Shown: positions 4,012-35,411, counted from the first letter of the stretch. The stretch: 64,000 nt of DNA from Minisyncoccota bacterium (GCA_046350795.1 JAXLZT010000001.1:245780-309779), one strand, 5' to 3'. Numbers and translations are program-made. The notes: generated from the letters alone by a model not told the origin.

Positions 4012-7000
4012 ATGAACGAATCGAAAGACGTATCCAAAAAAAGCGAGACAGCTCTAAACGAAGAAAAAATACTGAAATTTTGGGCCGAAAATGACATTTT
4101 TCAAAAAACTCTAAAAAAGCCTACTACCGAGGGCGACTTCGTATTTTATGAAGGACCTCCGACCGCCAATGGCAAGCCTGGTATTCATCATATTATTGCT
4201 CGTGTTTTCAAAGACGTGATTCCTCGATACAAAACGATGCGTGGTTTTCACGTGGATAGAAAAGGTGGTTGGGACACTCACGGTCTGCCTGTGGAAATAC
4301 AAGTAGAAAAACAACTTGGCCTAAAATCAAAGAAGGAGGTGGAGGCATATGGCGTAGAAAAATTTAATCAGGAGTGTAAAAAAAGTGTTTGGGAATATGT
4401 TGATTTGTGGAATGATTTTACTAGTCGTATCGGGTACTGGGTAGATCAAGAAAATCCATACATTACATATGAAAAAACATACATGGAGTCTGTGTGGAAT
4501 ATCTTGAAAAATATTTCTGAAAAAAAGACTGGTGGTGTGCTTGGCATTGGTGGAAAGGAAATGATCTACAAGGATTACAAAGTCCTACCTTGGTGTCCGC
4601 GTTGTGGTACGGCTCTTTCATCTCATGAGCTCGCGCAAGGATATGAAGACGTAAAAGATTTGTCTGTGTATGTGAAGTTTAAAGTTGTCGGCCAAGAAAA
4701 TACTTACTTGCTTGCGTGGACTACAACACCTTGGACATTGCCGGGCAACGTAGCGCTCGCTGTAGGGGAGGAAATGCAATACGCAGAAGTAGAATCAGAA
4801 AATGTAAAATATTTTTTGGCTGAAAAACTGGTAGAAAAAGTTTTTGCTGGAAAAGAAAATTATAAAATAATAAAAAAGTTTTCAGGAAAAAATCTCGTCG
4901 GTCTTGAATACGAACCTCTCTACCCATATCTTGCGGAAAAATTTGGCGACAAAGATCCTGAGGCTTTTGCGCGCGCATACAAAGTCTATTCGGCAGATTT
5001 TGTCACAACAGAAGATGGTACAGGCATAGTCCACACTGCTGTGATGTACGGACAAGAAGATTTTGATTTGGGTACAAAAGTAGGTCTACCAAAATTTCAT
5101 CTTGTAAAAGAAGACGGACATTTTCTCGATGATATGGATTTTCTTTCTGGAAGATTTGTAAAAGAAAAAGATGAAAAAGGGGAGGACACACTTGCGATAG
5201 ATATTATAAAAGATTTGGCGGGTCGAGGAATTCTTTTCAAAAAAGAAAAATACGCTCACACATATCCTCACTGCTGGCGATGCAAGACACCGCTCATATA
5301 TTACGCTCGAGACTCGTGGTATATCCGTATGTCTTCTTTGCGAGAGGAGCTTGTAAAAGAAAATGAAGATATAAATTGGCACCCAGAGCACATTCGTGAA
5401 GGACGTTTTGGCGAATGGCTTCGCGAAGTAAAAGACTGGGCTATTTCTCGTGAGAGATATTGGGGAACTCCTTTGCCTATATGGGAAGACAAAGATGGAG
5501 ATCGTATTTTTGTTGGTTCTATTTCGGAATTGAAATCATATATACCACAAAGAAATAAATTTACGCTTGTTCGTCATGGTGAGTCAGAAGCAAATACAAA
5601 AGATCTGATAGATTGTGATTACAAAAACAACGACTCACTTACAGAAAACGGAAGAGAAGAGGCAAAAAACGCCGGCAAAGTTGTTGCAGAAAAGAAAATT
5701 GATTTGATTTTCACCTCTCCTTTCAACAGGGCAAAAGAAACTGCTCAGATAATAGCAAAAGAGATTGGATTTGGTGGGGAGATTATCGAAGATGAAAGGC
5801 TGGGTGAGATTAGGCTCGGTCATTGGAGTGGAAAATCTTGGGAGAGTTATATTTCTTTGTTTAAAAACACACTAGAAAGATTTACAAAACATCCAGATCA
5901 CTCTTTGCAAAATATAGAAAATTGGGACGATTTGAGAGCTCGTGTTTCTGCTTTTATGTATGATATTGATTCAAAATATCAGGGCAAAAATATTCTCATT
6001 GTCGGACACGGAGGACCGCTAAATCTGATAGATCTAGCTTCTTTGGGTTATTCAAAAAAGGAAATGGCAAAACATTATCTCGATGATTCTTTTATGAATG
6101 CAGAAGCGCGAGATATTGATTGGAGAAATCTACCACACAATGAAAATTTTGAAATAGATTTGCATAGACCTTTTATAGACAACGTCGTTTTGGTGGATAA
6201 AGAGGGAAAAGAATACAAGCGTGTCAAAGAAGTGCTAGATGTGTGGTTTGACTCTGGTGCAATGCCTTTTGCTCAGATGCATTATCCTTTTGAAAAAGAT
6301 ACACAAGCTTTGGCATATCCAGCTGATTATATTTCCGAAGCGATAGATCAGACTCGTGGATGGTTTTACACCCTTCACGCTATTGGAATCTTGATGGGAA
6401 TGGGGAAGGCTTACAAAAATGTAATATGTCTTACTCATATTTTGGATGCGCACGGCAAAAAGATGTCAAAATCTGTCGGCAACGTAGTCGATCCTTGGGA
6501 AATGATGGATAAATACGGTGTAGACGCTTTGCGCCTTTGGATGTTTACGGTAAATCAGCCGGGAGACTCAAAGAATTTTGATGAAAAGACAGTTGATGAA
6601 GTAGTAAAAAAAGTATTCAACTTGATCACAAACATCGTTTCTTTCTATGAAATGTATGCTGATGAAAATGTGGTCGCTAGTGCTCAAAGTCAAAACGTGT
6701 TGGACAAATGGATAATCACGAGAATGCATCGTGTTATTTCAGATGGTACAAATGCCCTTGATAGCTACGATGTATTTTCTGCTGGCCGAGCAATACGCGA
6801 TTTTGTTTCTGATTTTTCTACTTGGTATATCAGACGCTCACGCGATCGATTTAAGTCAGATGATTTACTCGATAAAGCAAACGCTCTATCTACTACAAAA
6901 TATGTTTTGCTAGAGCTCGCAAAGTACATGGCGCCGTTTACTCCTTTTTACGCAGAAACTTTGTATCAAAAAGTAGGCGGAAAGCTAGAAAGTGTGCATC

Positions 7001-7533
7001 TGGAGGATTGGACAGAGGGGGAGATAAAGTCGGTAGGAGATGTTGTGGTCCTAGAAGATATGCAGGAAGTGAGAAATATAGTAAGTGTTGGACTAGAGCT
7101 ACGATCAAAGGCAAATATAAAAGTGCGCCAACCTATTTCAAAAATTACAATAAAATCAAACAGAGTTCAGGGTAGAGAAGATTTGGTAGATCTAATAAAA
7201 GATGAATTAAACGTAAAAGAAGTCGTCTTTGATAGTGCTCTGGCTAATGATGCAGAAATAGACACAAATATTTCAGAAGAGCTACGCTTGGAGGGACAAA
7301 TGAGAGAGTTTGTAAGAGCTGTGCAAGATTTAAGAAAAAATAAAAACCTTACAGTGGGTGACAATGCAAGACTTTTTGTCTCAACAAATGAAAAAGGCAA
7401 AAAATTAATAGAAGATTTTTCTTCAGAGATAAAGAGGATTACTCTCATAAGTGAGATTGTTTACAAAGATTTTTCTGGAGAAAAAATACAGGTAGAAGAT
7501 CTAGAGTTTGTTCTTGAGATAGAAAAAATCTAG
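4012..7533 (+). CDS. ileS: isoleucyl-tRNA synthetase (type 2 / eukaryote-like) carrying an inserted histidine-phosphatase domain
   Basis: It has HIGH-like PGIHH, WAISRERYWGTPLPIW and KMSKS motifs and the CP1 editing region TTPWTLPGNVA. About 200 extra residues between PLPIW and DLHRPFID carry the RHGE...GHGG motifs. Confidence 0.95.
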   Translation: MNESKDVSKKSETALNEEKILKFWAENDIFQKTLKKPTTEGDFVFYEGPPTANGKPGIHHIIARVFKDVIPRYKTMRGFHVDRKGGWDTHGLPVEIQVEKQLGLKSKKEVEAYGVEKFNQECKKSVWEYVDLWNDFTSRIGYWVDQENPYITYEKTYMESVWNILKNISEKKTGGVLGIGGKEMIYKDYKVLPWCPRCGTALSSHELAQGYEDVKDLSVYVKFKVVGQENTYLLAWTTTPWTLPGNVALAVGEEMQYAEVESENVKYFLAEKLVEKVFAGKENYKIIKKFSGKNLVGLEYEPLYPYLAEKFGDKDPEAFARAYKVYSADFVTTEDGTGIVHTAVMYGQEDFDLGTKVGLPKFHLVKEDGHFLDDMDFLSGRFVKEKDEKGEDTLAIDIIKDLAGRGILFKKEKYAHTYPHCWRCKTPLIYYARDSWYIRMSSLREELVKENEDINWHPEHIREGRFGEWLREVKDWAISRERYWGTPLPIWEDKDGDRIFVGSISELKSYIPQRNKFTLVRHGESEANTKDLIDCDYKNNDSLTENGREEAKNAGKVVAEKKIDLIFTSPFNRAKETAQIIAKEIGFGGEIIEDERLGEIRLGHWSGKSWESYISLFKNTLERFTKHPDHSLQNIENWDDLRARVSAFMYDIDSKYQGKNILIVGHGGPLNLIDLASLGYSKKEMAKHYLDDSFMNAEARDIDWRNLPHNENFEIDLHRPFIDNVVLVDKEGKEYKRVKEVLDVWFDSGAMPFAQMHYPFEKDTQALAYPADYISEAIDQTRGWFYTLHAIGILMGMGKAYKNVICLTHILDAHGKKMSKSVGNVVDPWEMMDKYGVDALRLWMFTVNQPGDSKNFDEKTVDEVVKKVFNLITNIVSFYEMYADENVVASAQSQNVLDKWIITRMHRVISDGTNALDSYDVFSAGRAIRDFVSDFSTWYIRRSRDRFKSDDLLDKANALSTTKYVLLELAKYMAPFTPFYAETLYQKVGGKLESVHLEDWTEGEIKSVGDVVVLEDMQEVRNIVSVGLELRSKANIKVRQPISKITIKSNRVQGREDLVDLIKDELNVKEVVFDSALANDAEIDTNISEELRLEGQMREFVRAVQDLRKNKNLTVGDNARLFVSTNEKGKKLIEDFSSEIKRITLISEIVYKDFSGEKIQVEDLEFVLEIEKI

Positions 7534-14025: not shown

Positions 14026-14793
14026 ATGCCAGAATTTATAGACATACACTGCCATACAAATTTTCCTGAATATGATGCCGATCGCGATGAGACAGTTTCT
14101 CGTGCTCTTAAAAAAAATATTTGGATGATAAACGTGGGTACCGATAAAGAATCTTCTTCTTCGGCGGTGGAGCTGACTGGTAAGTACAGTGAAGGTGTAT
14201 ATGCAGTTGTTGGGCAACATCCTACAAATACCGAAGAATCTTTTGATTATGATTTTTATAAAAATCTAGCTCAAAATCCAAAAGTGGTGGCGATAGGAGA
14301 GTGTGGTCTTGATTATTTCCGTGCAGATCCAAAAACCGCTGAGCATCAGAAAAAAGTTTTTCAGGCACAAATAGATTTAGCAAAAGAATTGAACAAACCA
14401 CTGATGCTCCACATTAGAAATGCTTACAAGGACGCTTATGAAATTTTAAAAGCAAATCCTGGAGTACATGGTAACGTCCATTTTTTCGCCGGCACTATAG
14501 ATGAAGCAAAAATGTTCTTAAGTCTCGGTTTCACACTATCTTTCACGGGTGTTATTACGTTTGCACGTGATTATGATGAGGTTATACGTTATATACCGCT
14601 AGATATGCTCATGAGTGAGACAGATGCGCCATACGTCGCTCCAGCGCCCCATAGAGGCAAAAGGAATGAACCATCCTACGTAGACGAGGTTGTAAAAAAG
14701 ATAGCTGAAATAAGGGGTGAGGATGTGGGGATTGTTAAAAAAGCTATAATTTCAAACGCAAATAGGCTTTTTGGCTTTAGCACTTCTTTATAA
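14026..14793 (+). CDS. tatD: TatD family hydrolase
   Basis: It has IDIHCH, GECGLDY and the TatD metal-binding pattern. Confidence 0.85.
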   Translation: MPEFIDIHCHTNFPEYDADRDETVSRALKKNIWMINVGTDKESSSSAVELTGKYSEGVYAVVGQHPTNTEESFDYDFYKNLAQNPKVVAIGECGLDYFRADPKTAEHQKKVFQAQIDLAKELNKPLMLHIRNAYKDAYEILKANPGVHGNVHFFAGTIDEAKMFLSLGFTLSFTGVITFARDYDEVIRYIPLDMLMSETDAPYVAPAPHRGKRNEPSYVDEVVKKIAEIRGEDVGIVKKAIISNANRLFGFSTSL

Positions 14794-14850
14794 TTTATTG
14801 ACCTTTTGTATGTTGCAATAACCAAGCACATATGATAACCTAATCGCTAC

Positions 14851-15354
14851 ATGTCTACAGAAGAAAAAGTAAATAAAACAGCAAAAGAAGGCAACCTTGT
14901 TTATGAGGTTGGTTTTCTATTACTTCCTACATTACCAGAAGAAAAGATGCCTGAAATAATGGCTAATATAAAGGGTATTATAGAAAAAAGTGGTGGTGAG
15001 ATTATCTCCGAAGAAGCTCCAAAAATGCGACCACTTGCTTATGAAATGTCTAAGTTGATACAGACAAAGAATACTTCTTTTGATCACGCATATTTTGGAT
15101 GGGTAAAATTTGAAATCGAGTCAGCAGAACTTTCTTCTGTAAAAAAATCTATCGAGTCTATGGACGAAATCCTTCGCGCTCTTTTTATAAAAACTATTCG
15201 AGAGAGTACTCTAATGTCAGGAAAGGTAAGTGAAAGAGATGCTCAAAAGACAAAAGCTGAAGATGAGGCAGTAGAATCTCCTGTCGAAGAAAACACAGCT
15301 CCTGCTAGTGAAGAAGAGATTGATAAAAGTATAGAAGCTCTTGTGGTAAATTAA
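14851..15354 (+). CDS. rpsF: 30S ribosomal protein S6
   Basis: It has S6-like sequence and sits in the conserved rpsF-ssb-rpsR order. Confidence 0.65.
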   Translation: MSTEEKVNKTAKEGNLVYEVGFLLLPTLPEEKMPEIMANIKGIIEKSGGEIISEEAPKMRPLAYEMSKLIQTKNTSFDHAYFGWVKFEIESAELSSVKKSIESMDEILRALFIKTIRESTLMSGKVSERDAQKTKAEDEAVESPVEENTAPASEEEIDKSIEALVVN

Positions 15355-15360
15355 AAAATT

Positions 15361-15813
15361 ATGTATTTAAACAAAGCACTTATTATCGGTAATCTCGTTC
15401 GTGACCCTGAAGTAAAATCTTTACCATCTGGTATACAAGTAGCCACTTTCAGTGTTGCGACCAACAGAGTTTGGAAAGATAAAAATGGGGCAAAGCAAGA
15501 AAATACTGATTATCACAACGTAGTGGTTTTTGGAAGACAAGCAGAGACTACAGGGCAGTATTTAAAAAAAGGCAGCTCAGTACTCGTAGAGGGTAGAATG
15601 CAAACACGAAGCTGGGACGCTCAGGATGGTACAAAAAAATACCGCACAGAGATAGTCGCAGATAGAATACAGTTTGGTCCTAGACGTGAAGGTGGTGCAG
15701 GGGCTAGCGCAAATGCAGACAAAGCAGGAGATAGTGCACCGGCCGCAAAGGAGGCTCTAGACACGATCGAGTATCCTTCAGAAGAAATCAATCCAGACGA
15801 TATACCATTTTAA
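15361..15813 (+). CDS. ssb: single-stranded DNA-binding protein
   Basis: It has an OB-fold SSB sequence and an acidic C-terminal DDIPF tail. Confidence 0.85.
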   Translation: MYLNKALIIGNLVRDPEVKSLPSGIQVATFSVATNRVWKDKNGAKQENTDYHNVVVFGRQAETTGQYLKKGSSVLVEGRMQTRSWDAQDGTKKYRTEIVADRIQFGPRREGGAGASANADKAGDSAPAAKEALDTIEYPSEEINPDDIPF

Positions 15814-15836
15814 GAAATTAAATAATAAGAAAATTT

Positions 15837-16040
15837 ATGCAGAAACAATGTTTTTTCACTCAGAATAATATAAAGGTAATCGACTACAAAGATGTCGATA
15901 TCTTAAAGAAATTCCTAAATCCTCATGGCCGTATCATGGCAAAAAAGAGGACAGGAGTGTCTTCAAAGTATCAGCGTCAGCTCGCTACTGCTATAAAGCG
16001 AGCAAGATTCATGGGTCTTCTACCGTTTGTTTCTCGCTAA
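15837..16040 (+). CDS. rpsR: 30S ribosomal protein S18
   Basis: It has S18 motifs (RTGVSSKYQRQLATAIKRARFMGLLPF). Confidence 0.85.
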   Translation: MQKQCFFTQNNIKVIDYKDVDILKKFLNPHGRIMAKKRTGVSSKYQRQLATAIKRARFMGLLPFVSR

Positions 16041-16048
16041 GTTCAACG

Positions 16049-16149
16049 CAAAAACATCATTTGAAAAGCACGCGTCAATCCCTGCTGGGATTGCTGCTCC
16101 GCTCGGCGCCGTCGCGCCTGCGCGAGTCTTTCCAAATGATGTTTTTTGC
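16049..16149 (+). repeat. family-B structured repeat element, copy B1
   Basis: The core GCACGCGTCAATCCCTGCTGGGATTGCTGCTCCGCTCGGCGCCGTCGCGCCTGCGCGAG is flanked by the inverted repeat CAAAAACATCATTTGAAAAG/TCTTTCCAAATGATGTTTTT. It starts 9 nt after the rpsR stop. Confidence 0.8.
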
Positions 16150-16165
16150 TGTAAATCTAATTAAT

Positions 16166-16268
16166 AAAACAAAATACCTAAAAAGGGGGTCGCGAGGCTG
16201 TCGAGCCGAGCGTTTCAGGCTTTTTTAAGCTTCAAAAAAGCCGTACCCTTTTAGGTATTTTGTTTTAA
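16166..16268 (+). repeat. family-A structured repeat element, copy A1
   Basis: The conserved core GGGGGTCGCGAGGCTGTCGAGCCGAGCGTTTCAGGCTTTTTTAAGCTTCAAAAAAGCCGTACCC is embedded in a copy-specific inverted repeat AAAATACCTAAAAAG/CTTTTAGGTATTTT followed by a T-run. It lies between rpsR and efp. Confidence 0.8.
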
Positions 16269-16828
16269 TTAACTCTATCTGTATACTCTCCAGTCTCAGT
16301 ATTTATCCTCAAAATATCTCCTTCTTTTACAAACATTGGCACAGTCACACTTGCACCCGTTTCTACTTTTACAGTTTTATTTCCACCTCGAGCCGTATCA
16401 CCACGCACAGCAGGGAAAGCTTCTGTTACTTTCAAATCCACTTTGATAGGTATTTTAATTCCGATTATCTTTTCATCAAACACAAGAGCGGGGACTATGG
16501 AGTTTGGTTTTAGAAATTGCATTCCAGGGCCAAGTAAATCTGCACTGAGCTCAAATCTGTCACTAGGCTTTGCTGGATCGCAAAACCAAAACGCACCTTT
16601 ATTTGTGTAAAGATATTTAACGTCTTTTGTAGAGATGTCAGCTTCTTCTACTTTTTCTGAGACGTGAAAAGAGACCTCGGCCACTTTACCAGTGATTAGG
16701 TTTTTCATTTTTACAGCGTTTACTGGCTTGCGCTGTTGTTTGCGGAAAACGTGTGAATGAATCACTTCGTACGGAGCACCTTCGTAAACAATAAACTTTC
16801 TTTCTACTATTTCGTTATATTCCAACAT
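16265..16828 (-). CDS. efp: elongation factor P
   Basis: A 187-aa EF-P with the KPG loop region. Confidence 0.9.
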   Translation of the reverse strand: MLEYNEIVERKFIVYEGAPYEVIHSHVFRKQQRKPVNAVKMKNLITGKVAEVSFHVSEKVEEADISTKDVKYLYTNKGAFWFCDPAKPSDRFELSADLLGPGMQFLKPNSIVPALVFDEKIIGIKIPIKVDLKVTEAFPAVRGDTARGGNKTVKVETGASVTVPMFVKEGDILRINTETGEYTDRVN

Positions 16829-16871
16829 AATACAGACGAGTCTAACCCAATAAAAGAAAAAAGGGAAGTAG

Positions 16872-17882
16872 CTAGGCCACCTCTGCTATTTTTTTGCGTA
16901 TTTCACCTAATATTTTGTCAGCTTCTTTTGGATTTTCTCGTAGGTACTGACGAGTAGAATCATATCCTCGACCAAGCTTTGTTTCACCATATGAGTAGCT
17001 AGAGCCACTTTTGCTTATGAGACCGTATTTTTCCCCAAGAGCGATGATTTCTCCTTCGCGAGATATACCTTCGTTGTACATGAGATCAAACTCTGTCTGG
17101 CGGAAAGGAGCGGCGACTTTGTTTTTTACTACCTTTGCGCGTATGCGTGAGCCCATGACCTCCTCGCCCTTTTTGATCTGGGCAATGCGACGGATGTCTA
17201 TGCGTACAGAAGTGTAAAACTTTAATGCTTTACCTCCAGGAGTAGTCTCTGGATTGCCAAACATTACTCCTATTTGCATTCTTATTTGGTTGATGAAAAT
17301 AACAATTGTCTTGCTCTTTGCGACTATTGCTGTGAGTTTGCGTAGGGCTTGTGACATGAGGCGTGCTTGTTTACCTACATGATGTGCTCCCATGTCTCCC
17401 TCTATTTCATCTTTTGGTGTCAGCGCTGCTACAGAGTCTATGACTATTACATCTATCTTTCCAGATCGTACGAGGCTTTCAGTGATCTCTAGAGCTTGTT
17501 CTCCAGTATCAGGCTGGGAAATGAGTAGCTCTTCTATTTTCACACCAAGCTTTTTTGAATACTCAGGATCCATAGCGTGCTCTGCATCTATAAACGCACA
17601 CACGCCACCCTTTTTTTGTGCTTCTGCTATGACATGTAGTGAAAGGGTAGTTTTACCAGATGACTCTGGTCCAAATATTTCTACTATTCTACCGCGAGGT
17701 AAACCTCCTACGCCAAGCGCTGCGTCTAGACCGATAGATCCTGTAGACACTGCGTCTATGTGTACGCGAGGTTTTTCACCAAGCTTCATTATCGAATCGT
17801 CTCCAAACTTATTTTTAATCTCTCTAAGTGCGTCCTCGATTTTTAAACCGTTTTCCTTTGGTATTTTTTCTTTTTTTGCCAT
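16872..17882 (-). CDS. recA: recombinase RecA
   Basis: It has Walker [10 protein letters not shown] and the RecA L1/L2 regions. Confidence 0.95.
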
Positions 17883-17883
17883 G

Positions 17884-18270
17884 TTAATTTATTTTCTGCG
17901 ATGTTATCAATCCAAGAGATTTATTTTGGTTGAGCACTAGCTCGAGCATTTTTTCTGTGTGTCTGCCAAATTTATCCTCTGCGGAAAGCTTGATTATATT
18001 ATAGCCGGGGGAGAGGAGCAATTTTTCATTAAATACACCCTCCTTGTCTACTGTGATGGCTCTGTCATTTATACTTATTGATGAAATGTTTTGAGCCATA
18101 CCTTTTATTTCTATCAAAGGATTTTCTATTGCAGAGCCATCTGTTGGCTCAAAAATCTCGAGTATCGGTCCACGTATAATATTGCGAGCCTCGTAAAGAG
18201 AATAACCACCAATAAAAATCACCATAGCGATCAATGAAGTTATTTTTATGGTTTTCTTAATGTTGGTCAT
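17884..18270 (-). CDS. hypothetical membrane-anchored protein
   Basis: 128 aa with an N-terminal TM helix. It lies in an operon position between ftsK and recA. Confidence 0.4.
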
Positions 18271-22129: not shown

Positions 22130-24169
22130 TTGTTCAATTATTACAAAAATATATTTATGATTTTGAAAACATCAAAAACTGCAAAGATTGTTGCAGGAGT
22201 TGTAGGATTCGCAATGGTTTTGAGTTTCATGGTGGCAACACCTGTGAAAGCTCAGACTACTGACATCGCAGCTCTTCAGGCAATGATTGCTTCATTGACA
22301 GCACAAATTGCAGCATTATCAGGCGGTTCATCTTCAATGATGACAGGTTCAGCTCCTATGGCTCCTCTTACAATGGGAAGCTCAGGCGCTGAGGTTACAA
22401 AGCTACAAAACTTCCTTATCTCAAAAGGATTTGGAATTGCAGCTGGTGCAACTGGCTACTTCGGTGGACAGACACAATCAGCTCTTGCAGCTTTCCAAGC
22501 AGCAAACGGAGTTACTCCAGCTGCTGGATACTACGGCTCAGTCACAGCAGCTAAGGTTGCTATGATGATGGGTCCTTCAACACCAAGTACACCTTCAACA
22601 CCTTCTACTCCAGCAGGTTCTGCTGATCTAGAAGGAACTGATGGTTCTATCTCAGATGTAGCTACACTTTCACAATACTCAAACGAGGAGGTGGGAGATG
22701 GTGAGTCTGAAGTAAAAGTAGCTGGTTTTGAAGTTGAAGCTTCAAAGGATGGAGACGTTGCTTTGAAGTCTATGAAACTTCATTTCGTTGGAACATCAAA
22801 CAGTGGTTCAAAAAGACTTGATGACTATGTCGATACTGTAAAGGTATGGATGGGATCAGAAGAGATTGGATCAGCTGATGCTTCAGATTTCAACAAAGAC
22901 AGCTCAGGAGTATACACAAAAACTATTACTCTAAAGTCTGGCGTTGTTGTAAAGGCTGACGAAACAGAGAAGTTCTACATTACTGTAGATGCAGTATCAA
23001 ATCTTGATTCAAGTGATGTATCTGGTGATGCATGGACAGTGGATGTTGATAACATTCGATTCACAGACGGTTCAGGTGTAACAACAACTGATGTCGATAC
23101 TGGTGATATCAATGCTATGAACATATCTATGAACTTCGTTACTTTCTCAGCTTCAGCTGATACAGAACTAAAGTTCACAACTGACTCATCAAACAATCCA
23201 GAAGCTGGTGTTGTTATGATTGATGATACTGAGGATACAGACGGAGTTGAGCTTTTGGCTGGTAAGATTGAAGTTGAAGGAACATCAGATGTGTGGATTG
23301 ACTCTATTCCTTTCGTGTTCACAACAACTTCAGACAGTCTTTCTGCGGTTGCTGGATCTGTAACACTTACTATAGATGGTGAGGAGTTCACAGAGAGTGT
23401 AAACACTTCAAACTGTTTGCCTGCAGCTGGTGGAACAAGTTGTGCAAGTACACAAAATGCTTCTATTGCATTCGACAATCTTGACTTCACTATTGGTGCT
23501 GGAGACACTGTATCATTTACAGTTTCTGCTGATATCAATGACATCAATGATTCTGGCGCAACAGCTACTGATCTTGATGAGGGAGACACACTTACAGCTT
23601 CTATGAACGCTACAACTCGAGGTGCTGTAGATGCAGAGAACGAAGAGGGTGATCAGTTGAGTTCTTCAGAGAGATCTGGAACAGTTACTGGTAATGCTCA
23701 AGAGTTCCGAACAAGTGGTATAACAGTAGATCTAGTTGGTACTCCAACTGCAACTGCAACTATTGGACAGAGCAATAACGATGATATCGGATTGTTCACA
23801 ATCAAGTTCAAGGTAACAGCTGTAGGAGATACTATTTACGTAGCTTCTGCTGTATCAAACGGTGTTACTTACTCTGTAGACAAGGGAGGAACAGCTACAT
23901 CTGCACCTACAATATCAGCTGCTCTTGTAAACAATTCTGACACAGATCTTACTTCAACTTATGGTCTATGGGAGATCGAAGAGGGTCAGAGCGAGACAAT
24001 GACATTGTCAGTGAGTGTGCCTATGGGTGGTCAATCTGGTAATGCTGGTTTGTACCGAACAGCTCTAACAGGAGTAAAGTGGGGTACAGCTTCAGATGAC
24101 GTAACTCCAAACAACACATACACTTCAAACCTTGACACATTTAAGACTGATTACGTCACTCTTAACTAA
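22130..24169 (+). CDS. secreted cell-surface protein with a peptidoglycan-binding domain and a long S/T/D-rich region
   Basis: It has a signal peptide, a PG_binding_1-like segment (TKLQNFLISKGF...GGQTQSALAAFQAANGV), an STPSTPSTPSTP linker and about 480 aa of low-complexity beta-rich sequence. The real start is probably the MILKTSKT Met. Confidence 0.6.
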   Translation: MFNYYKNIFMILKTSKTAKIVAGVVGFAMVLSFMVATPVKAQTTDIAALQAMIASLTAQIAALSGGSSSMMTGSAPMAPLTMGSSGAEVTKLQNFLISKGFGIAAGATGYFGGQTQSALAAFQAANGVTPAAGYYGSVTAAKVAMMMGPSTPSTPSTPSTPAGSADLEGTDGSISDVATLSQYSNEEVGDGESEVKVAGFEVEASKDGDVALKSMKLHFVGTSNSGSKRLDDYVDTVKVWMGSEEIGSADASDFNKDSSGVYTKTITLKSGVVVKADETEKFYITVDAVSNLDSSDVSGDAWTVDVDNIRFTDGSGVTTTDVDTGDINAMNISMNFVTFSASADTELKFTTDSSNNPEAGVVMIDDTEDTDGVELLAGKIEVEGTSDVWIDSIPFVFTTTSDSLSAVAGSVTLTIDGEEFTESVNTSNCLPAAGGTSCASTQNASIAFDNLDFTIGAGDTVSFTVSADINDINDSGATATDLDEGDTLTASMNATTRGAVDAENEEGDQLSSSERSGTVTGNAQEFRTSGITVDLVGTPTATATIGQSNNDDIGLFTIKFKVTAVGDTIYVASAVSNGVTYSVDKGGTATSAPTISAALVNNSDTDLTSTYGLWEIEEGQSETMTLSVSVPMGGQSGNAGLYRTALTGVKWGTASDDVTPNNTYTSNLDTFKTDYVTLN

Positions 24170-24215
24170 TCTTGGTTCTATAGTGTGATTCAGTAGCGCA
24201 AGCTATTTGAAAAAC

Positions 24216-24248
24216 AAAAACCGTCCTTAATTGGGCGGTTTTTGTTTT
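24216..24248 (+). terminator. intrinsic terminator after the surface-protein gene
   Basis: AAAAACCGTCC-TTAATT-GGGCGGTTTTTGTTTT hairpin plus T-run. Confidence 0.7.
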
Positions 24249-24285
24249 GCTTGAAAAAGTGATCTTTTTAATATAGTGTTGATAT

Positions 24286-26280
24286 ATGAATATTTCAACA
24301 AACAGCTGGATTGATAGAGTTTTTAATTCAATTTTTTACATATTTTTTATATCTTTTCCTTTCGTTACTACAAAGTATTTTTTGTATAGCGGTACATCTG
24401 TTAGATCGGCTTTTCTTATTTTAATTTCTATAATACTGTCTATTGTTTTCTGTCTTTCTGTTTTGATGAAAAAGACACAAGTCTCGATACCAAAATCTCC
24501 AATTTTTCTAGCTCTGTGTCTGTATTTTTTATCAATTGTTGTTTCTGCATTTTTGGGATTTAGTCTGCATACATCTTTTTGGTCTGTGCTTACCAGAACA
24601 TCTGGTCTGTGGTATTTTTTGCATCTAGGTTTGTTTCTATATTTTTTGTGGATATTTTTGTTGGATAAAGTTAGGCACGAGAAATTGATTTTACTTACAG
24701 TCATTTCTTCCGCTATTTTTTCCGTTCTGTCTTTTTTAGGTCCAGAAGGTTTGGGCTTAATCTTTAATGGATACAAGAACGATGGTTTTACTATCGGCAA
24801 TTCTTCTTTTGCTGGGATGTATATATTTGCCTCTTTTATTTTATCTGTTTATTATCTTTTGCGAGCAGAAAAAAAGAAGTGGTGGATGTTTTGTCTGCCG
24901 GTTCTTTTGGTTATAAATCCATACGTTTTAAATAACAATGTTTGGTCTGGTAATTTTTCTTCATTTTTTGGTGAGGCTAGAATGTCTACCATATCAATAA
25001 TTCTATCTGTGTTCTTTCTGCTTTTATCTTGGTTTTTATTTAAAATTAAAAATCATAAAACTCTAAAAATAGTTTCTTATACTTCTTTTGTTGTGTTGAT
25101 TGTCGGTTTTTTTGTCTGCGCACACTCCCTTCTTACTAATGATGGTTTTTTGCGAAAGGAGTATTTGTCTCAGGCTACGCTGGCAAGACCGATAGTTTGG
25201 GATATATCTGCAAGATCGATAATGAAAAATCCCATTCTTGGAACTGGCCTAGACAATTTTGATAGAGTTTTTCAGATTCAATATGACAACCGTTTACTAC
25301 AAACAAAGTATGGTTCAGAACCATGGTTTGATAGAGCGCATAACATTATATTGGAACAGGCTGTAGACAACGGCATTCTCGGGCTCTCTCTGTATCTACT
25401 GATCTATTTTGTCATTCTTCTATCTCTCATTTATGTATTTTTAAATACAAAAGATAGAAAGGACAAGATTTTTTCTGTTGTACTTTTTGTTTATTTTGTA
25501 TGTCATTTATCAGAGCTTCAAACAGCGTTCGACACAACGATTTCTTATCCGATACTTGGTTTTATGTTTGTTTCTGCTGTAGTGCTTTATGGAAGAACTA
25601 GAAAAGAAATTTTGCAAAAGAAAGAAGAGATTGTCTTATCCAACACACTTAAATATTCTACACTTTTTGTAATATTTGTATTTTGTTTCTGGTCTTTCTT
25701 TTGGGGTTTGGTACCTTTTGTGAGAGCGCAAAATATAAATGGGTACATCAGAACAATTGGATCAGCAGAAAAGAGAATCCCTGTGTACGAAACTCTTTTT
25801 AGCTCAGAAGTAGATGAACATGCCTTTTTGTGGAGAACGATGACTGATTTTCAAAGAGGAATTTCAGAAAATCCAAAAATATTATCAGACTCAAAAAGAC
25901 TAGAATATTTAAAGACTGAAGCTGATATTTTTGAAAATGAATATAGGCGGTTTGTATCAGAAAACCCTAATCACTTTAGAGCTAAATTAAATTTTGCTGA
26001 TATTCTCATTTACCAAACTCTTTTTGGTAAAAACAAATTAGAAGAAGCACAAAAAGTGCTTGATGAAGCTATTGCTTTGGTACCAAATAGCCCTCAACCA
26101 TATTGGATGAAGGCCGTTGGTTATCTTTATATGAAAAAGTTTGATCTAGCAAAACAAAATGCTAAAAAGGGTTTTGATTTAAATCCTGATGTAGAAGAAA
26201 GTCAGCATGTAGTGAAATACATTGAAGAGTCAATAAAGACTTTTCCAGAAATAGATTTATTCTTCTTTAGATTAATATAG
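24286..26280 (+). CDS. O-antigen ligase-like (Wzy_C) polytopic membrane protein with C-terminal TPR repeats
   Basis: It has about 10 TM helices and C-terminal TPR-like repeats. This architecture is common in Parcubacteria. Confidence 0.6.
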   Translation: MNISTNSWIDRVFNSIFYIFFISFPFVTTKYFLYSGTSVRSAFLILISIILSIVFCLSVLMKKTQVSIPKSPIFLALCLYFLSIVVSAFLGFSLHTSFWSVLTRTSGLWYFLHLGLFLYFLWIFLLDKVRHEKLILLTVISSAIFSVLSFLGPEGLGLIFNGYKNDGFTIGNSSFAGMYIFASFILSVYYLLRAEKKKWWMFCLPVLLVINPYVLNNNVWSGNFSSFFGEARMSTISIILSVFFLLLSWFLFKIKNHKTLKIVSYTSFVVLIVGFFVCAHSLLTNDGFLRKEYLSQATLARPIVWDISARSIMKNPILGTGLDNFDRVFQIQYDNRLLQTKYGSEPWFDRAHNIILEQAVDNGILGLSLYLLIYFVILLSLIYVFLNTKDRKDKIFSVVLFVYFVCHLSELQTAFDTTISYPILGFMFVSAVVLYGRTRKEILQKKEEIVLSNTLKYSTLFVIFVFCFWSFFWGLVPFVRAQNINGYIRTIGSAEKRIPVYETLFSSEVDEHAFLWRTMTDFQRGISENPKILSDSKRLEYLKTEADIFENEYRRFVSENPNHFRAKLNFADILIYQTLFGKNKLEEAQKVLDEAIALVPNSPQPYWMKAVGYLYMKKFDLAKQNAKKGFDLNPDVEESQHVVKYIEESIKTFPEIDLFFFRLI

Positions 26281-26286
26281 ATTAAT

Positions 26287-26490
26287 ATGAAAAAATATTT
26301 CGATAAAACATTTTTCAGATTTCTGATCGGTTTTATTGTCATTCTTGTCATTAGTTTTTCTATTACTTTTATTGCTATATATTTTGAAAGAAAAAATCAG
26401 GCACAAAATACCGTCGATGACTCGGTGTCTCAGGCAAGTACCATAGAATTTGCTTCTGACGATGAATGTTTGACAATGGGAAATTGTTAG
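26287..26490 (+). CDS. small hypothetical membrane protein
   Basis: 67 aa with a single TM helix. It overlaps an alternative - strand ORF. Confidence 0.25.
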   Translation: MKKYFDKTFFRFLIGFIVILVISFSITFIAIYFERKNQAQNTVDDSVSQASTIEFASDDECLTMGNC

Positions 26491-26625
26491 GTATACTACG
26501 ATGCATAAGGTCAAAGACAATAGGCAATCAATAAGCCCTATCGAGACGTAACGAAAGCGCTTTGCGTTTTCATCACTATTCTCGGCCTTGTGGTCGATTT
26601 TTTATTTATCAATCTGTAAACATAA

Positions 26626-26728
26626 AGAGTAATCATACTTTAAAATGCCTCGCGCAGGCACGTCGGTGCCGAGCGGAGCAGAAATCCTAGCAAGGATTTA
26701 CGCGTGCAGTTTAAAGTATGATTACTCT
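26626..26728 (-). repeat. family-B structured repeat element, copy B2
   Basis: The reverse complement gives ...GCACGCGTAAATCCTTGCTAGGATTTCTGCTCCGCTCGGCACCGACGTGCCTGCGCGAG... flanked by AGAGTAATCATACTTTAAA/TTTAAAGTATGATTACTCT. It lies in the rplJ leader region. Confidence 0.8.
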
Positions 26729-26735
26729 GTGACAC

Positions 26736-27224
26736 ATGGCTATATCAAAAGAAAAAAAGAAAGGAATTCTAGAAAATCTTAATACGATCGTAAAGGATTC
26801 CGGCTCTGTTGTTTTCGTTAATTTTCATGGGCTTCCTATGAATGACACTACTGAGCTAAGAAAAGCACTTCATGCACAAGAAGTAGGGTATACAGTCGCA
26901 AAAAAGACTCTTACTCGAAAGGCTTTTGAAGGAGTAAAAATAGAAGGAGAAATGCCAGAGCTTACAGGTGAGCTAGCTCTAGTGTATGGCAAAGATATGA
27001 TTGCACCTGCGCGTGAAATATATGCTTTCCAGAAAAAGCTTGATGGTAAAGTAACAATCCTTGGTGGAGTATTTGAGGGAAAATACATGGACAAAACTGC
27101 GATGATGACTATCGCGCAGATCCCATCTCTACAGACTCTACGTGGAATGTTCGTCAATATCATCAATTCACCTATACAGCGTCTCGCAGTTTCTTTGTCA
27201 CAAATAGCTGCAAAGAAAGCTTAA
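26736..27224 (+). CDS. rplJ: 50S ribosomal protein L10
   Basis: It has L10 sequence and lies upstream of rplL. Confidence 0.85.
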   Translation: MAISKEKKKGILENLNTIVKDSGSVVFVNFHGLPMNDTTELRKALHAQEVGYTVAKKTLTRKAFEGVKIEGEMPELTGELALVYGKDMIAPAREIYAFQKKLDGKVTILGGVFEGKYMDKTAMMTIAQIPSLQTLRGMFVNIINSPIQRLAVSLSQIAAKKA

Positions 27225-27250
27225 TTAAAAATTATTAAAAATTATAAAAT

Positions 27251-27643
27251 ATGGAAAATACAAACGTAGAAGTTCCTGCAAAATTCAAGTCTATCGTAGA
27301 AAGTATTGAAAATATGTCAGTACTTGATTTGCACGAGCTAGTAAAATTGTTTGAGGCAAAGTTTGGGGTATCTGCGGCTGCTGTCGCTGCTCCTGCTGCT
27401 GGTGGTGCTGCTGGCGCTGGTGCAGAAGAGAAGACTTCATTTACAGCGCACTTAGCTGATGCAGGTGCTCAGAAAATCGCTGTCATCAAGGTTGTAAAGG
27501 AAGTATTGGGTCTTGGTCTAAAAGAGGCAAAGGATCTAGTAGATGCTGCTCCTTCTGTGCTTAAGGAAGGAATGAAGAAAGAAGACGCAGAGAAACTAAA
27601 GAAAGACGTAGAAGCTGCTGGAGGAAAGGTAGAATTGAAATAG
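27251..27643 (+). CDS. rplL: 50S ribosomal protein L7/L12
   Basis: It has an Ala-rich hinge and the C-terminal domain KEAKDLVD...[10 protein letters not shown]. Confidence 0.9.
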
Positions 27644-27651
27644 TTAAACAA

Positions 27652-27750
27652 AACAAAAAGTACTCAAAAAGGGGGTCGCGAGGCTGTCGAGCCGAGCGTT
27701 TCAGGATTTTTTAAGCTTCAAAAAATCCGTACCCTTTTTGAGTACTTTTT
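27652..27750 (+). repeat. family-A structured repeat element, copy A2
   Basis: The same core with a compensatory GGC...GCC to GGA...TCC change. The flanking inverted repeat is AAAAAGTACTCAAAAAG/CTTTTTGAGTACTTTTT. It lies downstream of rplL. Confidence 0.8.
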
Positions 27751-27801
27751 GTTTGCTTTAGGTGTTTTTGTTTTGTTTCCTATGGTATATACTTATCCAT
27801 C

Positions 27802-28422
27802 ATGGATATTTTAGAGAAAGTCTTTGGAAGTGGGGAAAAGGTCAGGCTTATGCGACTTTTCATGTTTAATCCAAACTCAGTTTTTGATTTAAACGATATC
27901 GCAGAAAGGACAGATACAAACCCGCGCTCTATAAAAAAAGAAATAATTAACCTAGAGAAAATTGAGCTTATAAAAAGTAAGGTTTTTGTACGTGACATAG
28001 AGAAAAAGCGGGGTAAAAAGAAATTTACTATAAAGAAAAAGTCTTCTGGCTGGACATTAAATCAAAAATTTCAGTATTTGCGACCACTGCAAGATTTTTT
28101 AGTCTATATGAACCCATTTCGTCACAACGAACTAATAGAAAAGCTCAGGAAAATAGGAAATATAAAGCTTCTGGTTATTTCTGGGGTATTTATACAAGAG
28201 TGGGAGAGTCGGGTAGACCTTTTTCTGGTTGGAGACAATATAAAAAAGGGTTCTTTGGATAATGTTATACGTGGCTTGGAGTCTGAGCTCGGAAAAGAGC
28301 TTAAATATGCTGCTTTAGAGACAGGCGATTTTCATTATAGGCTCAATATGTGTGACAAACTCATCAGTGATGTATTAGATTTTCCGCACGAAAAGGTCAT
28401 AAATAAGATAGGGATTGAATAA
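27802..28422 (+). CDS. hypothetical protein with an N-terminal wHTH-like segment
   Basis: 206 aa with a helix-turn-helix-like N-terminus. Confidence 0.4.
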   Translation: MDILEKVFGSGEKVRLMRLFMFNPNSVFDLNDIAERTDTNPRSIKKEIINLEKIELIKSKVFVRDIEKKRGKKKFTIKKKSSGWTLNQKFQYLRPLQDFLVYMNPFRHNELIEKLRKIGNIKLLVISGVFIQEWESRVDLFLVGDNIKKGSLDNVIRGLESELGKELKYAALETGDFHYRLNMCDKLISDVLDFPHEKVINKIGIE

Positions 28423-28546
28423 AATTGGTTATCCACAGCTAAATCTGGCAAAAGTTGGCTCTATGTCAATGCGTGTTATAATTTATAAGGACATTAAAAG
28501 GTCTTTTATTATTAATTATTAAAAGTAATGCATTGCGTGATGCGTA

Positions 28547-29266
28547 GTGCGAGCCCGTTTATCGGGAAAAATCAAGAACATGATGCTTCAAACATGGACA
28601 GCAGGACTAAGCCAATCATTCTTTAGTTTATGGAATGGTGTTGCTATGTTCCTACCAACACTTATTATCGCTGTGATAATAGTGGTTATCGGATGGATTG
28701 TTGGTTCACTTCTAGGACGAGTAGTTTCTCAAGTTATAAAATCAGTAAATGTCGATCAGGCTTTGCGAAAGGCTGGAGTAGAGGAAACTCTTCAAAAGGG
28801 AGGTGTACACCTTAATTCAGGAAATTTCATAGGTGGACTAGTGAGATGGTTTGTCATTGTTGTGTTTTTAGTTGCAGCCTTTGATGTACTAGGACTTGTA
28901 CAGGTAAATCAATTCCTATACAACGTAGTACTTCTTTACATGCCAAATGTAATCGTAGCTGTACTTGTACTTCTTTTGGCTGCTGTTATTGGTGATGCAT
29001 TACAAAGAATTGTATCTGCTTCAGCTCGTACAGCTGGACTAAGATCTTCTGCTTTGCTCGGTGTGGTAGCACGATGGACTATTTGGATTTTCGGTCTACT
29101 TGTAGCACTATCTCAGCTTGGTATTGCAGCTCCATTTATACAGACTCTATTTACAGGAGTTGTTGTGGCTCTTTCTCTCGCTCTTGGACTATCATTTGGT
29201 CTAGGAGGCCAGGAGGCAGCTGCTCGATTTATCGAGAAGACTCGACAAGAGATTTCTCACAAATAA
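28547..29266 (+). CDS. polytopic membrane protein (conserved TM-helix repeat, mechanosensitive-channel-like)
   Basis: It has repeated TM helices and moderately elevated GC. A strong intrinsic terminator follows it. Confidence 0.5.
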   Translation: MRARLSGKIKNMMLQTWTAGLSQSFFSLWNGVAMFLPTLIIAVIIVVIGWIVGSLLGRVVSQVIKSVNVDQALRKAGVEETLQKGGVHLNSGNFIGGLVRWFVIVVFLVAAFDVLGLVQVNQFLYNVVLLYMPNVIVAVLVLLLAAVIGDALQRIVSASARTAGLRSSALLGVVARWTIWIFGLLVALSQLGIAAPFIQTLFTGVVVALSLALGLSFGLGGQEAAARFIEKTRQEISHK

Positions 29267-29308
29267 TAATTGGGATTATATTATTTAATCTAGGTAATAT
29301 TTTTCAGC

Positions 29309-29340
29309 AAAAAACACCCGAGAGGGTGTTTTTTGTTTTC
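29309..29340 (+). terminator. intrinsic terminator after the membrane-protein gene
   Basis: AAAAAACACCCGAGAGGGTGTTTTTTGTTTT. Confidence 0.8.
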
Positions 29341-29353
29341 CTTAGAAACTTCA

Positions 29354-29447
29354 AGAAAGTAACCTTTGAAATGCACGCATAAATCGCTGCTGCGATTTTG
29401 CTATGCTCGGCTACCCGCCTGCGCAATGCATTTCAAAGGTTACTTTC
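29354..29447 (+). repeat. family-B structured repeat element, copy B3 (diverged)
   Basis: GCACGCATAAATCGCTGCTGCGATTTTGCTATGCTCGGCTACCCGCCTGCGCAATGCA flanked by AGAAAGTAACCTTTGAAATGCA/TGCATTTCAAAGGTTACTTTC. Confidence 0.7.
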
Positions 29448-29555
29448 GTTACGTTATCTAGTAGAAAAAATTTATCACTTCTTTAGCGTGGCTTTAGGTG
29501 CCGTTTTTTAAAATTTACAAAGAATCGTTCTTTTTAGCCTCTTTGAAAGGAGAAT

Positions 29556-30716: not shown

Positions 30717-30726
30717 ACCAAAAACC

Positions 30727-30751
30727 ACAGCCCGCTAACCCCGGGCTTTTT
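30727..30751 (+). terminator. intrinsic terminator after the HAF-repeat gene
   Basis: CAGCCCGCTAACCCCGGGCTTTTTG. Confidence 0.65.
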
Positions 30752-30800
30752 GTATGGAAGGGAGTAATAATGTGTGGTAACTAGTCTTGAGAAACCTAGT

Positions 30801-30890
30801 AAAATAGCCTCAAAAATGTGTTGCGGAGCGCTTGGCGCGAGCATAACGAAATTTCAGCAGAAATTTACGTGCACATTTTTGAGGCTATTT
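30801..30890 (-). repeat. family-B structured repeat element, copy B4 (diverged, inverted)
   Basis: The reverse complement gives TGCACGTAAATTTCTGCTGAAATTTCGTTATGCTCGCGCCAAGCGCTCCGCAA flanked by AAAATAGCCTCAAAAATGTG/CACATTTTTGAGGCTATTTT. Confidence 0.65.
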
Positions 30891-30911
30891 TGCTATGATT
30901 TCTATACCTTG

Positions 30912-30939
30912 TTGACATAATTTTACCTATGTATATACT
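30912..30939 (+). promoter_or_regulatory. sigma70-type promoter for the 23S-tRNAGly-5S unit (TTGACA-N16-TATACT)
   Basis: It is a near-consensus promoter about 370 nt upstream of 23S. Confidence 0.5.
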
Positions 30940-31017
30940 GTTATTTATCTCTGATATGCGTAAATTAATTAATCCAACAATAAAGCGGTAAAGATAACGT
31001 TATTTTTATGTTATCCC

Positions 31018-31041
31018 TGCCGCTTTCAAGCGGTTTTTTTC
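31018..31041 (+). terminator. terminator-like hairpin plus T8 inside the 23S leader
   Basis: GCCGCTTTCAAGCGGTTTTTTT lies between the putative promoter and mature 23S. Confidence 0.4.
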
Positions 31042-31804
31042 TTTAAAAAATCGCAGGATTAAAAGAGGATCGTGTACAGAAGTTTTTTGACAAAAATCAC
31101 ATGAAAAGCCCGAGGGCGATTTATGTGATCATTCCTGTCGCACACCCTTTTTCTGAGGTCTTAGTGGTGTGAAGACAGGTGCAGAAACTGTTATATATGA
31201 TTGTTAATTATATGTAACAGAGTAAAAAGAAACTGTCGCGAAAGCGACAGAGTAAGTTAAATATTGTGGTTTTTAAATTTCCTAATAGGAAATTTAAGAG
31301 CATATGGTGGATGCCTTGACTCTAAGAGGCGAAGAAGGACGTGGTCTGGCTGCGATAAGCTTCGGGGAGGTGCCTAGCAACCTTTGATCCGAAGATTTCC
31401 GAATGGGGAAACCCTATAGCGTAAGCTATAATCATGCACTTGATGTGTGATGCAAACTCTGGGAAGTAAAACATTTCAGTACCAGAAGGAAAAGAAACTA
31501 ACAAGCATTTCCTTAGTAGCGGCGAGCGAAAAGGAAGAAGCCCAAACCGAGCTTCATTCTCACGATGCATTTATGTGTTGTGGGAATGACGCTCGGGGTT
31601 ATAAGACGACAACTCAATTTATATTGAGAGAGTTACAAAACATTTTGTTAATGGAATACGCTGGAAAGCGTGACCCTAGGGGGTAATAGTCCCGTACATG
31701 AAAATAAAATGTCTCTTACGTTGTTGTTCTTGAGTACCTCAAGACACGTGTGGCTTGAGGGAATTTACCGGAACTAACCGGAAAGGCTAAATACTCTTAG
31801 AGAT

Positions 31805-31841
<37 letters not shown>

Positions 31842-33260: not shown

Positions 33261-33295
<35 letters not shown>

Positions 33296-34832: not shown

Positions 34833-34905
34833 ATAAAATTGCTCTTATAGCTCAGCGGCAGAGTGTCGGCGTGCCACGCCGAAGGTCGTTGGTTCAAATC
34901 CAACT
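34833..34905 (+). tRNA. tRNA-Gly (GCC)
   Basis: It folds by hand into a cloverleaf (acceptor GCTCTTA/TGAGAGC, anticodon loop GTGCCAC). It lies between 23S and 5S. Confidence 0.75.
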
Positions 34906-35250: not shown

Positions 35251-35271
35251 CTAAGGATTTAAAACTAGACA

Positions 35272-35377
35272 AAAACAAAAGACATTAAATGGGCACGGAT
35301 TTTTTGAAGCTTAAAAAATCCTGAAACGCTCGGCTCGACAGCCTCGCGACCCCCCATTTAGTGTCTTTTGTTTTTTT
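35272..35377 (-). repeat. family-A structured repeat element, copy A3 (inverted orientation)
   Basis: The reverse complement of the core is flanked by CAAAAGACATTAAATGGG/CCCATTTAGTGTCTTTTG plus a T-run. It lies immediately downstream of 5S rRNA. Confidence 0.8.
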
Positions 35378-35411
35378 GCCCATCTTTCTATTGTGTTATT
35401 ATTAGTGCAAC

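Follow-up and report, generated by a model that had tools for sequence, protein, structure and literature searches.

Intergenic hairpin repeats with a conserved three-way junction and copy-specific arms in Patescibacteria (CPR)

The spacer between rpsR and efp in the Minisyncoccota bacterium assembly GCA_046350795.1 contains a short element whose internal hairpin keeps its loop while the stem changes on both sides from copy to copy, and which is enclosed in a long inverted repeat of its own. A first-pass annotation of the 64,000-nucleotide stretch analysed here, which we call the window, took this covariation as strong evidence for a functional RNA structure. Homogenisation of inverted repeats at the DNA level yields the same 'compensatory' pattern, however, so that covariation is possible without selection on RNA. 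This raises the question whether the element is a structured RNA or a DNA repeat whose arms are kept complementary in some other way.

Copies in the window and in other genomes

The window has a G+C content of about 38% and consists of tightly packed housekeeping genes, almost all of them on one strand. The closest assemblies are metagenome-assembled genomes (MAGs) of Parcubacteria/Paceibacterota type, which places the window in a Patescibacteria (CPR) bacterium; many related MAGs carry their depositors' label 'Saccharibacteria'. The 23S rRNA gene (31280-34750) measures 3471 nt against a 2925-nt model, and insertions account for about 545 nt. The rRNA genes are unlinked: tRNAGly (34841-34912) lies between the 23S gene and 5S (35142-35250), and the 16S gene with tRNAIle (43394-44893) lies 8.6 kb downstream. 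In the isoleucyl-tRNA synthetase ORF (4012-7533, 1173 aa) a His_Phos_1 domain at residues 518-689 splits the catalytic domain. A 24-bp imperfect palindrome at 2908-2956 (83% complementary, 1-nt centre), in the spacer between a NUDIX gene and the next ORF, is unrelated to the elements described here. Two further ORFs may be relevant to DNA uptake or transfer: one is pilin-like, with an N-terminal methylation motif (47392-47880), and the other (52289-54070) is similar to type IV secretion coupling proteins.

The four copies first described as family B (B1-B4) are all present at the places given for them, and a MAFFT alignment reproduces their shared core (Table 1). The diagnostic hairpin pattern AATNNNTGCTNNNATT has four matches in the window against a chance expectation of 0.56, and on either strand the four copies fold into a long outer stem with two inner hairpins (z-scores between -5.6 and -9.1 relative to shuffles). 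The covariance model R1, built from a 54-copy alignment of B elements, recovered B1-B4 with 86-96 bits, together with about 80 further copies outside the window, almost all in assemblies of Patescibacteria. It also matches A1, A2 and A3, annotated until now as a separate family A, at 52-56 bits (E about 1e-11) and on the strand opposite to the one originally assigned. Since a model built from B copies finds the A copies too, the division into two families has to be given up in favour of one superfamily that had been read on opposite strands. Common to both is the 3' half, in which a hairpin is flanked by GCTCG and YTCGCRAG, and it is the other hairpin, P2, that differs. In total the window has seven superfamily copies, four sense and three antisense, all of them intergenic, and they represent seven of the nine longest inverted repeats among those listed for the window.

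Table 1. Superfamily copies in the window and neighbouring features mentioned in the text
Feature	Position	Strand	Description	Scores
B1	16044..16158	+	arms 16050-16068 / 16128-16146, three-way-junction core between	R1 87.4 bits, fold z -5.6
A1	16156..16269	-	arms 16165-16186 / 16246-16267; inverted repeat I6	R1 52.5 bits
rplJ promoter (TTGACA-16 nt-TATACT) and conserved L10 leader/attenuator	26470..26603	+	ends CTCGGCCTTGTGGTCGA then TTTTTT; upstream of B2, outside the element	
B2	26616..26731	-	arms 26626-26648 / 26706-26728	R1 94.3 bits
A2	27642..27756	-	arms 27646-27673 / 27732-27755; directly past rplL stop codon	R1 55.8 bits
Remnant of older right arm	27756..27778		CTTTAGGTG then TTTTTGTTTTGTTT, outside the present A2 right arm	
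Intrinsic terminator of MscS-like gene	29306..29337	+	CAAAAAACACCC-GAGA-GGGTGTTTTTTG; distinct from B3; read from the sequence	
B3	29349..29460	+	perfectly paired arm parts about 29356-29375 / 29427-29446	R1 96.4 bits
B4	30787..30898	-	arms 30792-30820 / 30872-30900	R1 85.6 bits
A3	35269..35384	+	arms 35271-35293 / 35353-35375; inverted repeat I4, 96% complementary	R1 52.9 bits

The copies lie close to the ends of genes. B1 starts 8 nt past the rpsR stop codon, A1 adjoins the efp stop codon and A3 starts 19 nt past the 5S rRNA gene. A promoter and terminator scan places B4 between a terminator (30729-30747) and the rRNA promoter (30912-30939), on the side of the -35 box. The model start of B3 is 12 nt downstream of the canonical terminator of the MscS-like gene, which is kept in the relatives L044, L091 and L219 (L numbers stand for sequences outside the window). 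B2 lies within the rplJ 5' UTR and ends about 5-8 nt ahead of the ATG at 26736 (arm end 26728, model end 26731). It had been said to occupy the L10 leader, which is misleading, because relatives keep the leader without B2; the element is an insertion downstream of the real conserved leader. Whether or not B2 is present, L215, L218, L221 and L222 keep this leader. Across relatives it (26498-26603 in the window) contains AAGGTCAAAGACAATAGG ... AATAAGCCCTATCGAGAC ... CTCGGCCTTGTGGTCGA and then TTTTTT, an apparent antiterminator/terminator alternative, and it gave no match to the Rfam L10 leader even at E <= 10.

To describe the taxonomic range we scanned 185,579 species, one genome each (596 Gb), with a degenerate core pattern of 17 specified bases. 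At least 119 stretches were returned, against an estimated 140 or so chance matches, and about half of the raw matches are chance. About 60 have a complementary inner stem; these come nearly all from Patescibacteria MAGs and have the full architecture. The R1 search gave 82 copies in 62 CPR loci, and 76 of 79 copies lie outside ORFs. Nothing rose above noise in Rfam 15, searched with the whole window at the gathering threshold and with the elements, long variants and other subfamilies at E <= 1-10, so that B1/A1, B2, the long variants and the other subfamilies are all without a match there. Our literature searches, which spanned part of the literature, found no description of such elements in CPR. 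These hairpin-shaped repeats of about 110 bases between genes of Patescibacteria apparently form an undescribed family.

We found no candidate for a gene that travels with the elements. A mobilising enzyme or transposase is absent from the 54 ORFs of the window, and Pfam searches of 130 flanking ORFs returned housekeeping functions only, with no recurrent neighbour and no transposase in the 25 families seen most often. For the window and the flanking ORFs, the idea of a gene or transposase linked to the elements was rejected on this basis. Carriage by phages was rejected as well: two pattern scans of IMG/VR for phage-borne copies gave four matches, all of them chance and without R1 confirmation, and none, respectively.

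Other hairpin elements of similar architecture, with different or larger cores, are found past rplL in L143 (2383-2520, with 30-bp perfect arms), L125 (1366-1480), L138 and L184. R1 misses most of these and matches L184 weakly, which means that the superfamily is broader than R1 detects. A further type, C, has a conserved 27-nt core, GAACGRGTTAGCGAAGCGCTTTAGAGA, within copy-specific terminator-like arms of 14-22 bp (L212 8513-8650, L202 3214-3276, L022 near 3439 and L058 near 2056). The window has no C element, and a 99%-identical strain has one.

Anatomy, covariation and orientation

The outer stem P1 is 19-35 bp long, and up to 35-39 bp in other genomes, and is topped by a three-way junction in which J1/2 is usually CAC. 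Read by eye on the extra copies, P2 has the form xxx-(bulged U)-AAAUnnn-NGCU-nnnAUUU-xxx. P3 starts with the 3-bp helix P3a, continues with a UC/YUC internal loop and ends in P3b, a GC-rich hairpin of variable sequence. The inner stem of P2 covaries as originally described (CCC/GGG, CCT/AGG, CGC/GCG and TTC/GAA). The outer extension of P2 (GCG/UGC, GCA/UGC, ACG/CGU, GGA/UCC), P3a (UGC/GCA, CGC/GCG, AGC/GCU, CUC/GAG) and the P3b hairpin covary too. An RNAalifold consensus of 54 copies has 38 pairs, 33 of which show compensatory changes. With 85 copies aligned to R1, 93.2% of the cells are paired, compared with 42-52% when partners are slid, and both-sided changes are seen at 37 of the 38 pairs, in an alignment that leans to the structure of the model it is based on. 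The conserved unpaired nucleotides are CAC, the bulged U, the NGCU loop and GCUCG. Between genomes in which intergenic DNA can no longer be aligned, the core, including these unpaired bases, is far better kept than its flanks.

Some copies have large insertions at the tips of P2 or P3 with the junction preserved. In the long variants (L027 2146-2340, L059, L067 7176-7400 and L085 105-300) a structured insert of 110-130 nt takes the place of P3, and these inserts share the motifs CAAACTCG and CAAACAGTGCTTCAGGC. The longest variants, with about 170-190 nt between the arms, contain no ORF. A larger subfamily (L016, L018, L021, L042, L049, L095, L099 and L113) has a second conserved stem layer, giving a unit of about 150 nt. 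This layer is an asymmetric internal loop in which the 5' arm CTTTCTCA faces the 3' arm TTCGACNA, bracketed by further pairing.

Are these features those of a functional RNA? The RNA could be a cis-acting UTR module, for instance a 3'-end stabiliser that binds a protein, a super-terminator or a substrate of RNase III, or else a small RNA gene under selection at each locus. Such a role would be in line with the very strong covariation in four helices, the conserved unpaired nucleotides, a core that is kept where the flanks are saturated with change, and the tips of P2 and P3, which vary in length and in the long variants have expanded with conserved motifs. A G-U pair is kept in P2 of B1-type copies on the modelled strand. 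Location also speaks for it, as copies adjoin the highly expressed rpsR, efp, rplJ, rplL, 23S and 5S genes. The 461 kb of sequence around rplJ in 80 more distant relatives contain 10 matches in total, and all 10 adjoin rplJ or rplL, the vicinity of which makes up only about 28% of the non-ORF bases by a crude estimate. Yet orientation is random, with 24 sense and 23 antisense copies between co-directional genes, and an element read as its reverse complement would have loops and a junction of different sequence. As the arms reach up to stop and start codons, there is no room for a promoter, and none is seen at the elements. B3 and B4 are found in nominally untranscribed spacers, downstream of a terminator and ahead of the promoter that follows. 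If selection acted on RNA, G-U intermediates should be favoured on the functional strand, but such intermediates are almost absent: 36 of the 38 pairs have 0-4 one-sided (wobble) changes each, whereas double changes in the outer stem number 17-54. In per-copy arm alignments the mismatches on the modelled strand comprise 31 G-T (G-U) against 56 A-C, and thus no excess of G-U. Presence and absence differ even between 99%-identical strains, and no Rfam family matches. The conclusion from covariation to functional RNA is thus not borne out, given the random orientation, the placement between transcripts, the few wobbles and the instability at strain level, and we regard a functional structured RNA, whether UTR module or small RNA gene, as unlikely. 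An RNA role that does not depend on orientation, as a predicted terminator or exonuclease block, is plausible because elements are found at sites where relatives have terminators.

Arms and their turnover among relatives

The flanks had been described as perfect inverted repeats of 18-22 bp, unique to each copy. Long inverted repeats they are, with window values of 19-23 bp, but complementarity ranges from 95 to 100% (95% in the inverted repeat of B1, I9). Similarly, it is the outer 10-25 bp that differ between copies, while members of one subfamily share the inner 9-12 bp. In B1, B4, A1, A2 and A3 the outer arms have the sequence form of an A-tract, a stem and a T-tract, which is terminator-like in both directions. 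The arms of B2 and B3 are AT-rich; B3 has no T-tract and B2 has a T-run that is at best weak.

Several comparisons, two of them between copies that are likely orthologous, show arms that have changed and are still perfectly paired. The B3-type copies of the window and L219 have the same core, place and orientation, and unrelated arms of 19 and 29 perfect bp. The B4-type copies past rplL in L044 and L091 have related arms that differ by eye at about a quarter of their positions and are perfect over 27-32 bp. In P2 of A1, the window and L203 differ by a compensated 2+2-nt change, that is, in two adjacent pairs, within a block that is otherwise 96-100% identical. As described in PMC8604942 and PMC13100816, template switching homogenises and expands the arms of inverted repeats and inverts the spacer between them. 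We infer that the changed yet perfect arms are the footprints to be expected from intra-strand template switching.

The remnant beside A2 belongs to this picture of remodelled arms. Its first part, CTTTAGGTG, is the complement of CACCTAAAG, an arm sequence found in L215 and L222, and its second part, TTTTTGTTTTGTTT, is a perfect 14-nt complement of 27646-27659, the left A-tract (inverted repeat I19). The present right arm has probably pushed the remnant outward; a new copy that took the place of an older one is another possible source. In L109 (7825-7990) a complete element is followed by a second, slightly diverged copy of its right arm and the complement of the first 8 core bases, apparently another remnant of an arm or element duplication. 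Two further ideas about the arms were tried and rejected. One is that one arm and the core are transferred and the other arm is regenerated with each transposition, which is rejected because four recent copies share an asymmetric internal loop in their arms. The other is that arms are guide- or spacer-like sequences; a blastn-short comparison of all left arms with the whole set of sequences analysed gave self and sister matches and chance matches of 15-19 nt.

The elements are gained and lost between close relatives. L212 (CAYQIZ010000003) is 98.9-99.9% identical to window positions 22251-32650 and carries B2, A2 and B3. It has no B4; a truncated A fragment and a C element take up the place of the whole 152-nt spacer that separates terminator and promoter. 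Among relatives with identical S18, the rpsR-efp spacer is found in three states: a single plain bidirectional terminator without any element (L200, L201, L208), B1 together with A1 (window, L203, L206), and a C element that displaces the 5' half of B1 (L202, L204), B1 of L202 being 5'-truncated. The rplL site has a plain terminator in L218-L221 and an A-type copy in L215 and L222, with GCACCT in its left arm as against GTACTC in the window. Comparison with L215 and L222 shows B2 as a clean insertion, about 110 nt long, that separates the conserved rplJ leader from the start codon. The empty site of these two relatives reads ...TTTTTTATTTAGAAAATATACATCTAA-ATG, with no element and no hairpin, and no direct repeat or target-site duplication is seen in this single clean case. 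The MAG CAZFHL01 has four copies at unrelated loci that are 92-97% identical over about 134 nt. One of these is nested inside an older element, and L113 contains a nested insertion. Short-read contigs break inside the elements.

Exchange between lineages is visible around B1. Compared with L203, window positions 14338-18208 contain two blocks, 14738-14937 and 15835-16828, at 96-100% identity, and elsewhere identity is 71-88%. The stretch rpsR-B1-A1-efp is 96-100% identical and its flanking genes 72-88%, a mosaic that points to recombinational exchange of the whole rpsR-B1-A1-efp block. The sequences suggest that homologous recombination between lineages may be frequent.

The terminator-like form of many arms leads to another possible explanation, namely a mobile module of 27-85 nt that inserts into the loops of terminator hairpins, each copy inheriting the stem of its target. 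Many variable arms indeed consist of an A-tract and 4-6 GC-rich bases, mirrored by the stem and a T-tract, and this form matches native terminators (L132, L148, L127, L200 and window 29306-29337). C modules are found inside textbook terminator stems, as in L058 with CAAAAAACGCTTCC ... GGAAGCGTTTTTTG, and both the A2 site and the B1/A1 site are occupied by a plain terminator in relatives. It is questionable, however, whether such insertion could have produced B2, whose empty site in L215 and L222 is without any hairpin, or the copies at the B3 site, where in four genomes, the window, L044, L091 and L219, the terminator of the gene is intact and the element lies 9-25 nt downstream with its own arms, unrelated from one genome to the next. 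These two sites contradict the strict version, which places all copies in loops of terminators that were there beforehand. The AT-rich arms of B2 and B3 have no clear flanking T-tracts, recent duplicates carry 33 nt of identical arms along, and no empty terminator sharing the stem of a filled one was found at an orthologous site, the 80 metagenome rplJ loci being at most 63% identical in L10 and too distant to be informative. Insertion into terminator loops is in our view quite improbable. Chance similarity or an assembly artefact can practically be dismissed, as R1 scores are 85-111 bits and the same elements occur in independent NCBI, JGI, ENA and Logan assemblies.

Likeness to known repeats and a probable origin

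The first-pass annotation was right that this is a genuine structured repeat family, and also that the elements are not CRISPR, REP/BIME or a classical MITE, since the features that define these classes are lacking. The likenesses are nevertheless instructive. REP/BIME elements, which are mobilised by RAYT/TnpA_REP in proteobacteria, are also small, non-coding, extragenic, palindromic and high in copy number (here seven copies per 64 kb, with 76 of 79 outside ORFs). They are often located directly 3' of a gene or in the space between two convergent ones, show turnover at strain level, and can serve as hairpin terminators or stabilise mRNA, an activity that is predicted here. A REP, however, is a GC-rich stem-loop of 20-40 nt with a conserved stem and a 5' GTAG-like (GTAG/GGAG) head, whereas our unit is about 110 nt long, with an AT-rich copy-specific stem and conservation in the apical three-way junction. 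No RAYT (Y1 HUH transposase) is present among the 54 window ORFs or the 25 commonest families of the 130 flanking ORFs.

Bacterial hairpin MITEs such as Correia/CREE, ERIC, RUP and Rickettsia RPE (reviewed in PMC3184786 and PMC10969869) share the size of 100-150 nt, terminal inverted repeats that form a long hairpin, a non-autonomous and dispersed character and insertion polymorphism. In MITEs the terminal repeats are conserved and bind the transposase, but here the ends vary and the centre is conserved. MITE insertions also have direct target-site duplications, in contrast to B2, the one clean case. The folded single-strand DNA sites of attC and of IS200/IS605 hairpin ends are similar in that structure matters more than sequence and extrahelical bases are important. 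Sites of the attC type have R and L boxes (GTTRRRY) at their outer ends, a variable centre and cassette arrays near intI; our elements vary at their outer ends and occur as solitary, dispersed copies, and the window has no integrase, so that an assignment to attC fails. IS200/IS605 elements have two similar hairpins with guide tetranucleotides, a feature that is absent here. Bidirectional intrinsic terminators resemble B1, B4 and A1-A3 in their A-tract/stem/T-tract arms and occupy the same sites in relatives, but the 'loop' here is a conserved three-way junction of 55-60 nt, and B3 lies beside an intact terminator. Finally, template-switched inverted repeats, as described in PMC8604942, PMC13100816 and PMC5941160, share the perfect arms, the compensated multi-nucleotide changes, the outward growth of the arms and the possible inversion of the spacer. 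Quasipalindrome correction is a mutational process and not an element family, and leaves the junction core and the spread of the elements unexplained.

Taking these comparisons together, B1-B4 and family A are probably REP/MITE-like palindromic DNA repeats of about 110 nt whose arms are kept perfect by hairpin template switching. Such elements would be selfish or semi-domesticated DNA, propagated or exchanged at the DNA level. They might spread through a trans-acting enzyme that reads the junction, through template switching during replication, or through homologous recombination of the flanking genes. Fold-back (intra-strand) template switching would keep the arms complementary while remodelling and extending them. 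Copy-specific perfect palindromes and apparent covariation would then both arise without selection acting on RNA. Transcription is probably terminated or insulated by the long hairpin and its T-tract as a side effect, as is predicted from their form, and at some sites, such as rpsR/efp and rplL, the element may have replaced the native terminator.

The core is better conserved than neutral DNA, which implies that something reads the junction. Presumably this is a mobilising enzyme acting on the folded DNA, or a host factor. The conservation of the core argues against decaying selfish copies unless turnover or gene conversion is fast, and a selected function would fit it equally well. Two further observations count against the DNA-repeat reading: insertions in P2 and P3 preserve the junction as they do in functional RNAs, and B1-type copies have a G-U pair on the modelled strand. 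Mobility in particular is weakened by the fact that there is no enzyme seen, no target-site duplication and no established definition of the ends. A bolder version of the DNA-repeat reading is that the three-way junction is the recognition structure of a CPR mobile system that reads shape, either driven by an enzyme or transposase-free by way of stalled replication. We put this forward tentatively and consider it rather doubtful. If it were true, an enzyme would cut and paste whole hairpins, or the hairpins would copy themselves by template switching; their arms would be grown from local sequence, and they would have been co-opted as terminators or insulators near highly expressed operons.

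The genomes of CPR bacteria are tiny and usually considered poor in repeats, which makes such a family notable. The elements fill about half of the larger intergenic spacers in the window and recur across many CPR lineages, and because of them short-read assemblies break at predictable places. They also provide a natural case in which homogenisation of a DNA palindrome mimics RNA covariation, a caveat for pipelines that discover non-coding RNAs. Should a junction-specific enzyme or a role in termination prove true, the elements would offer a route to understanding genome dynamics and transcription control in CPR bacteria.
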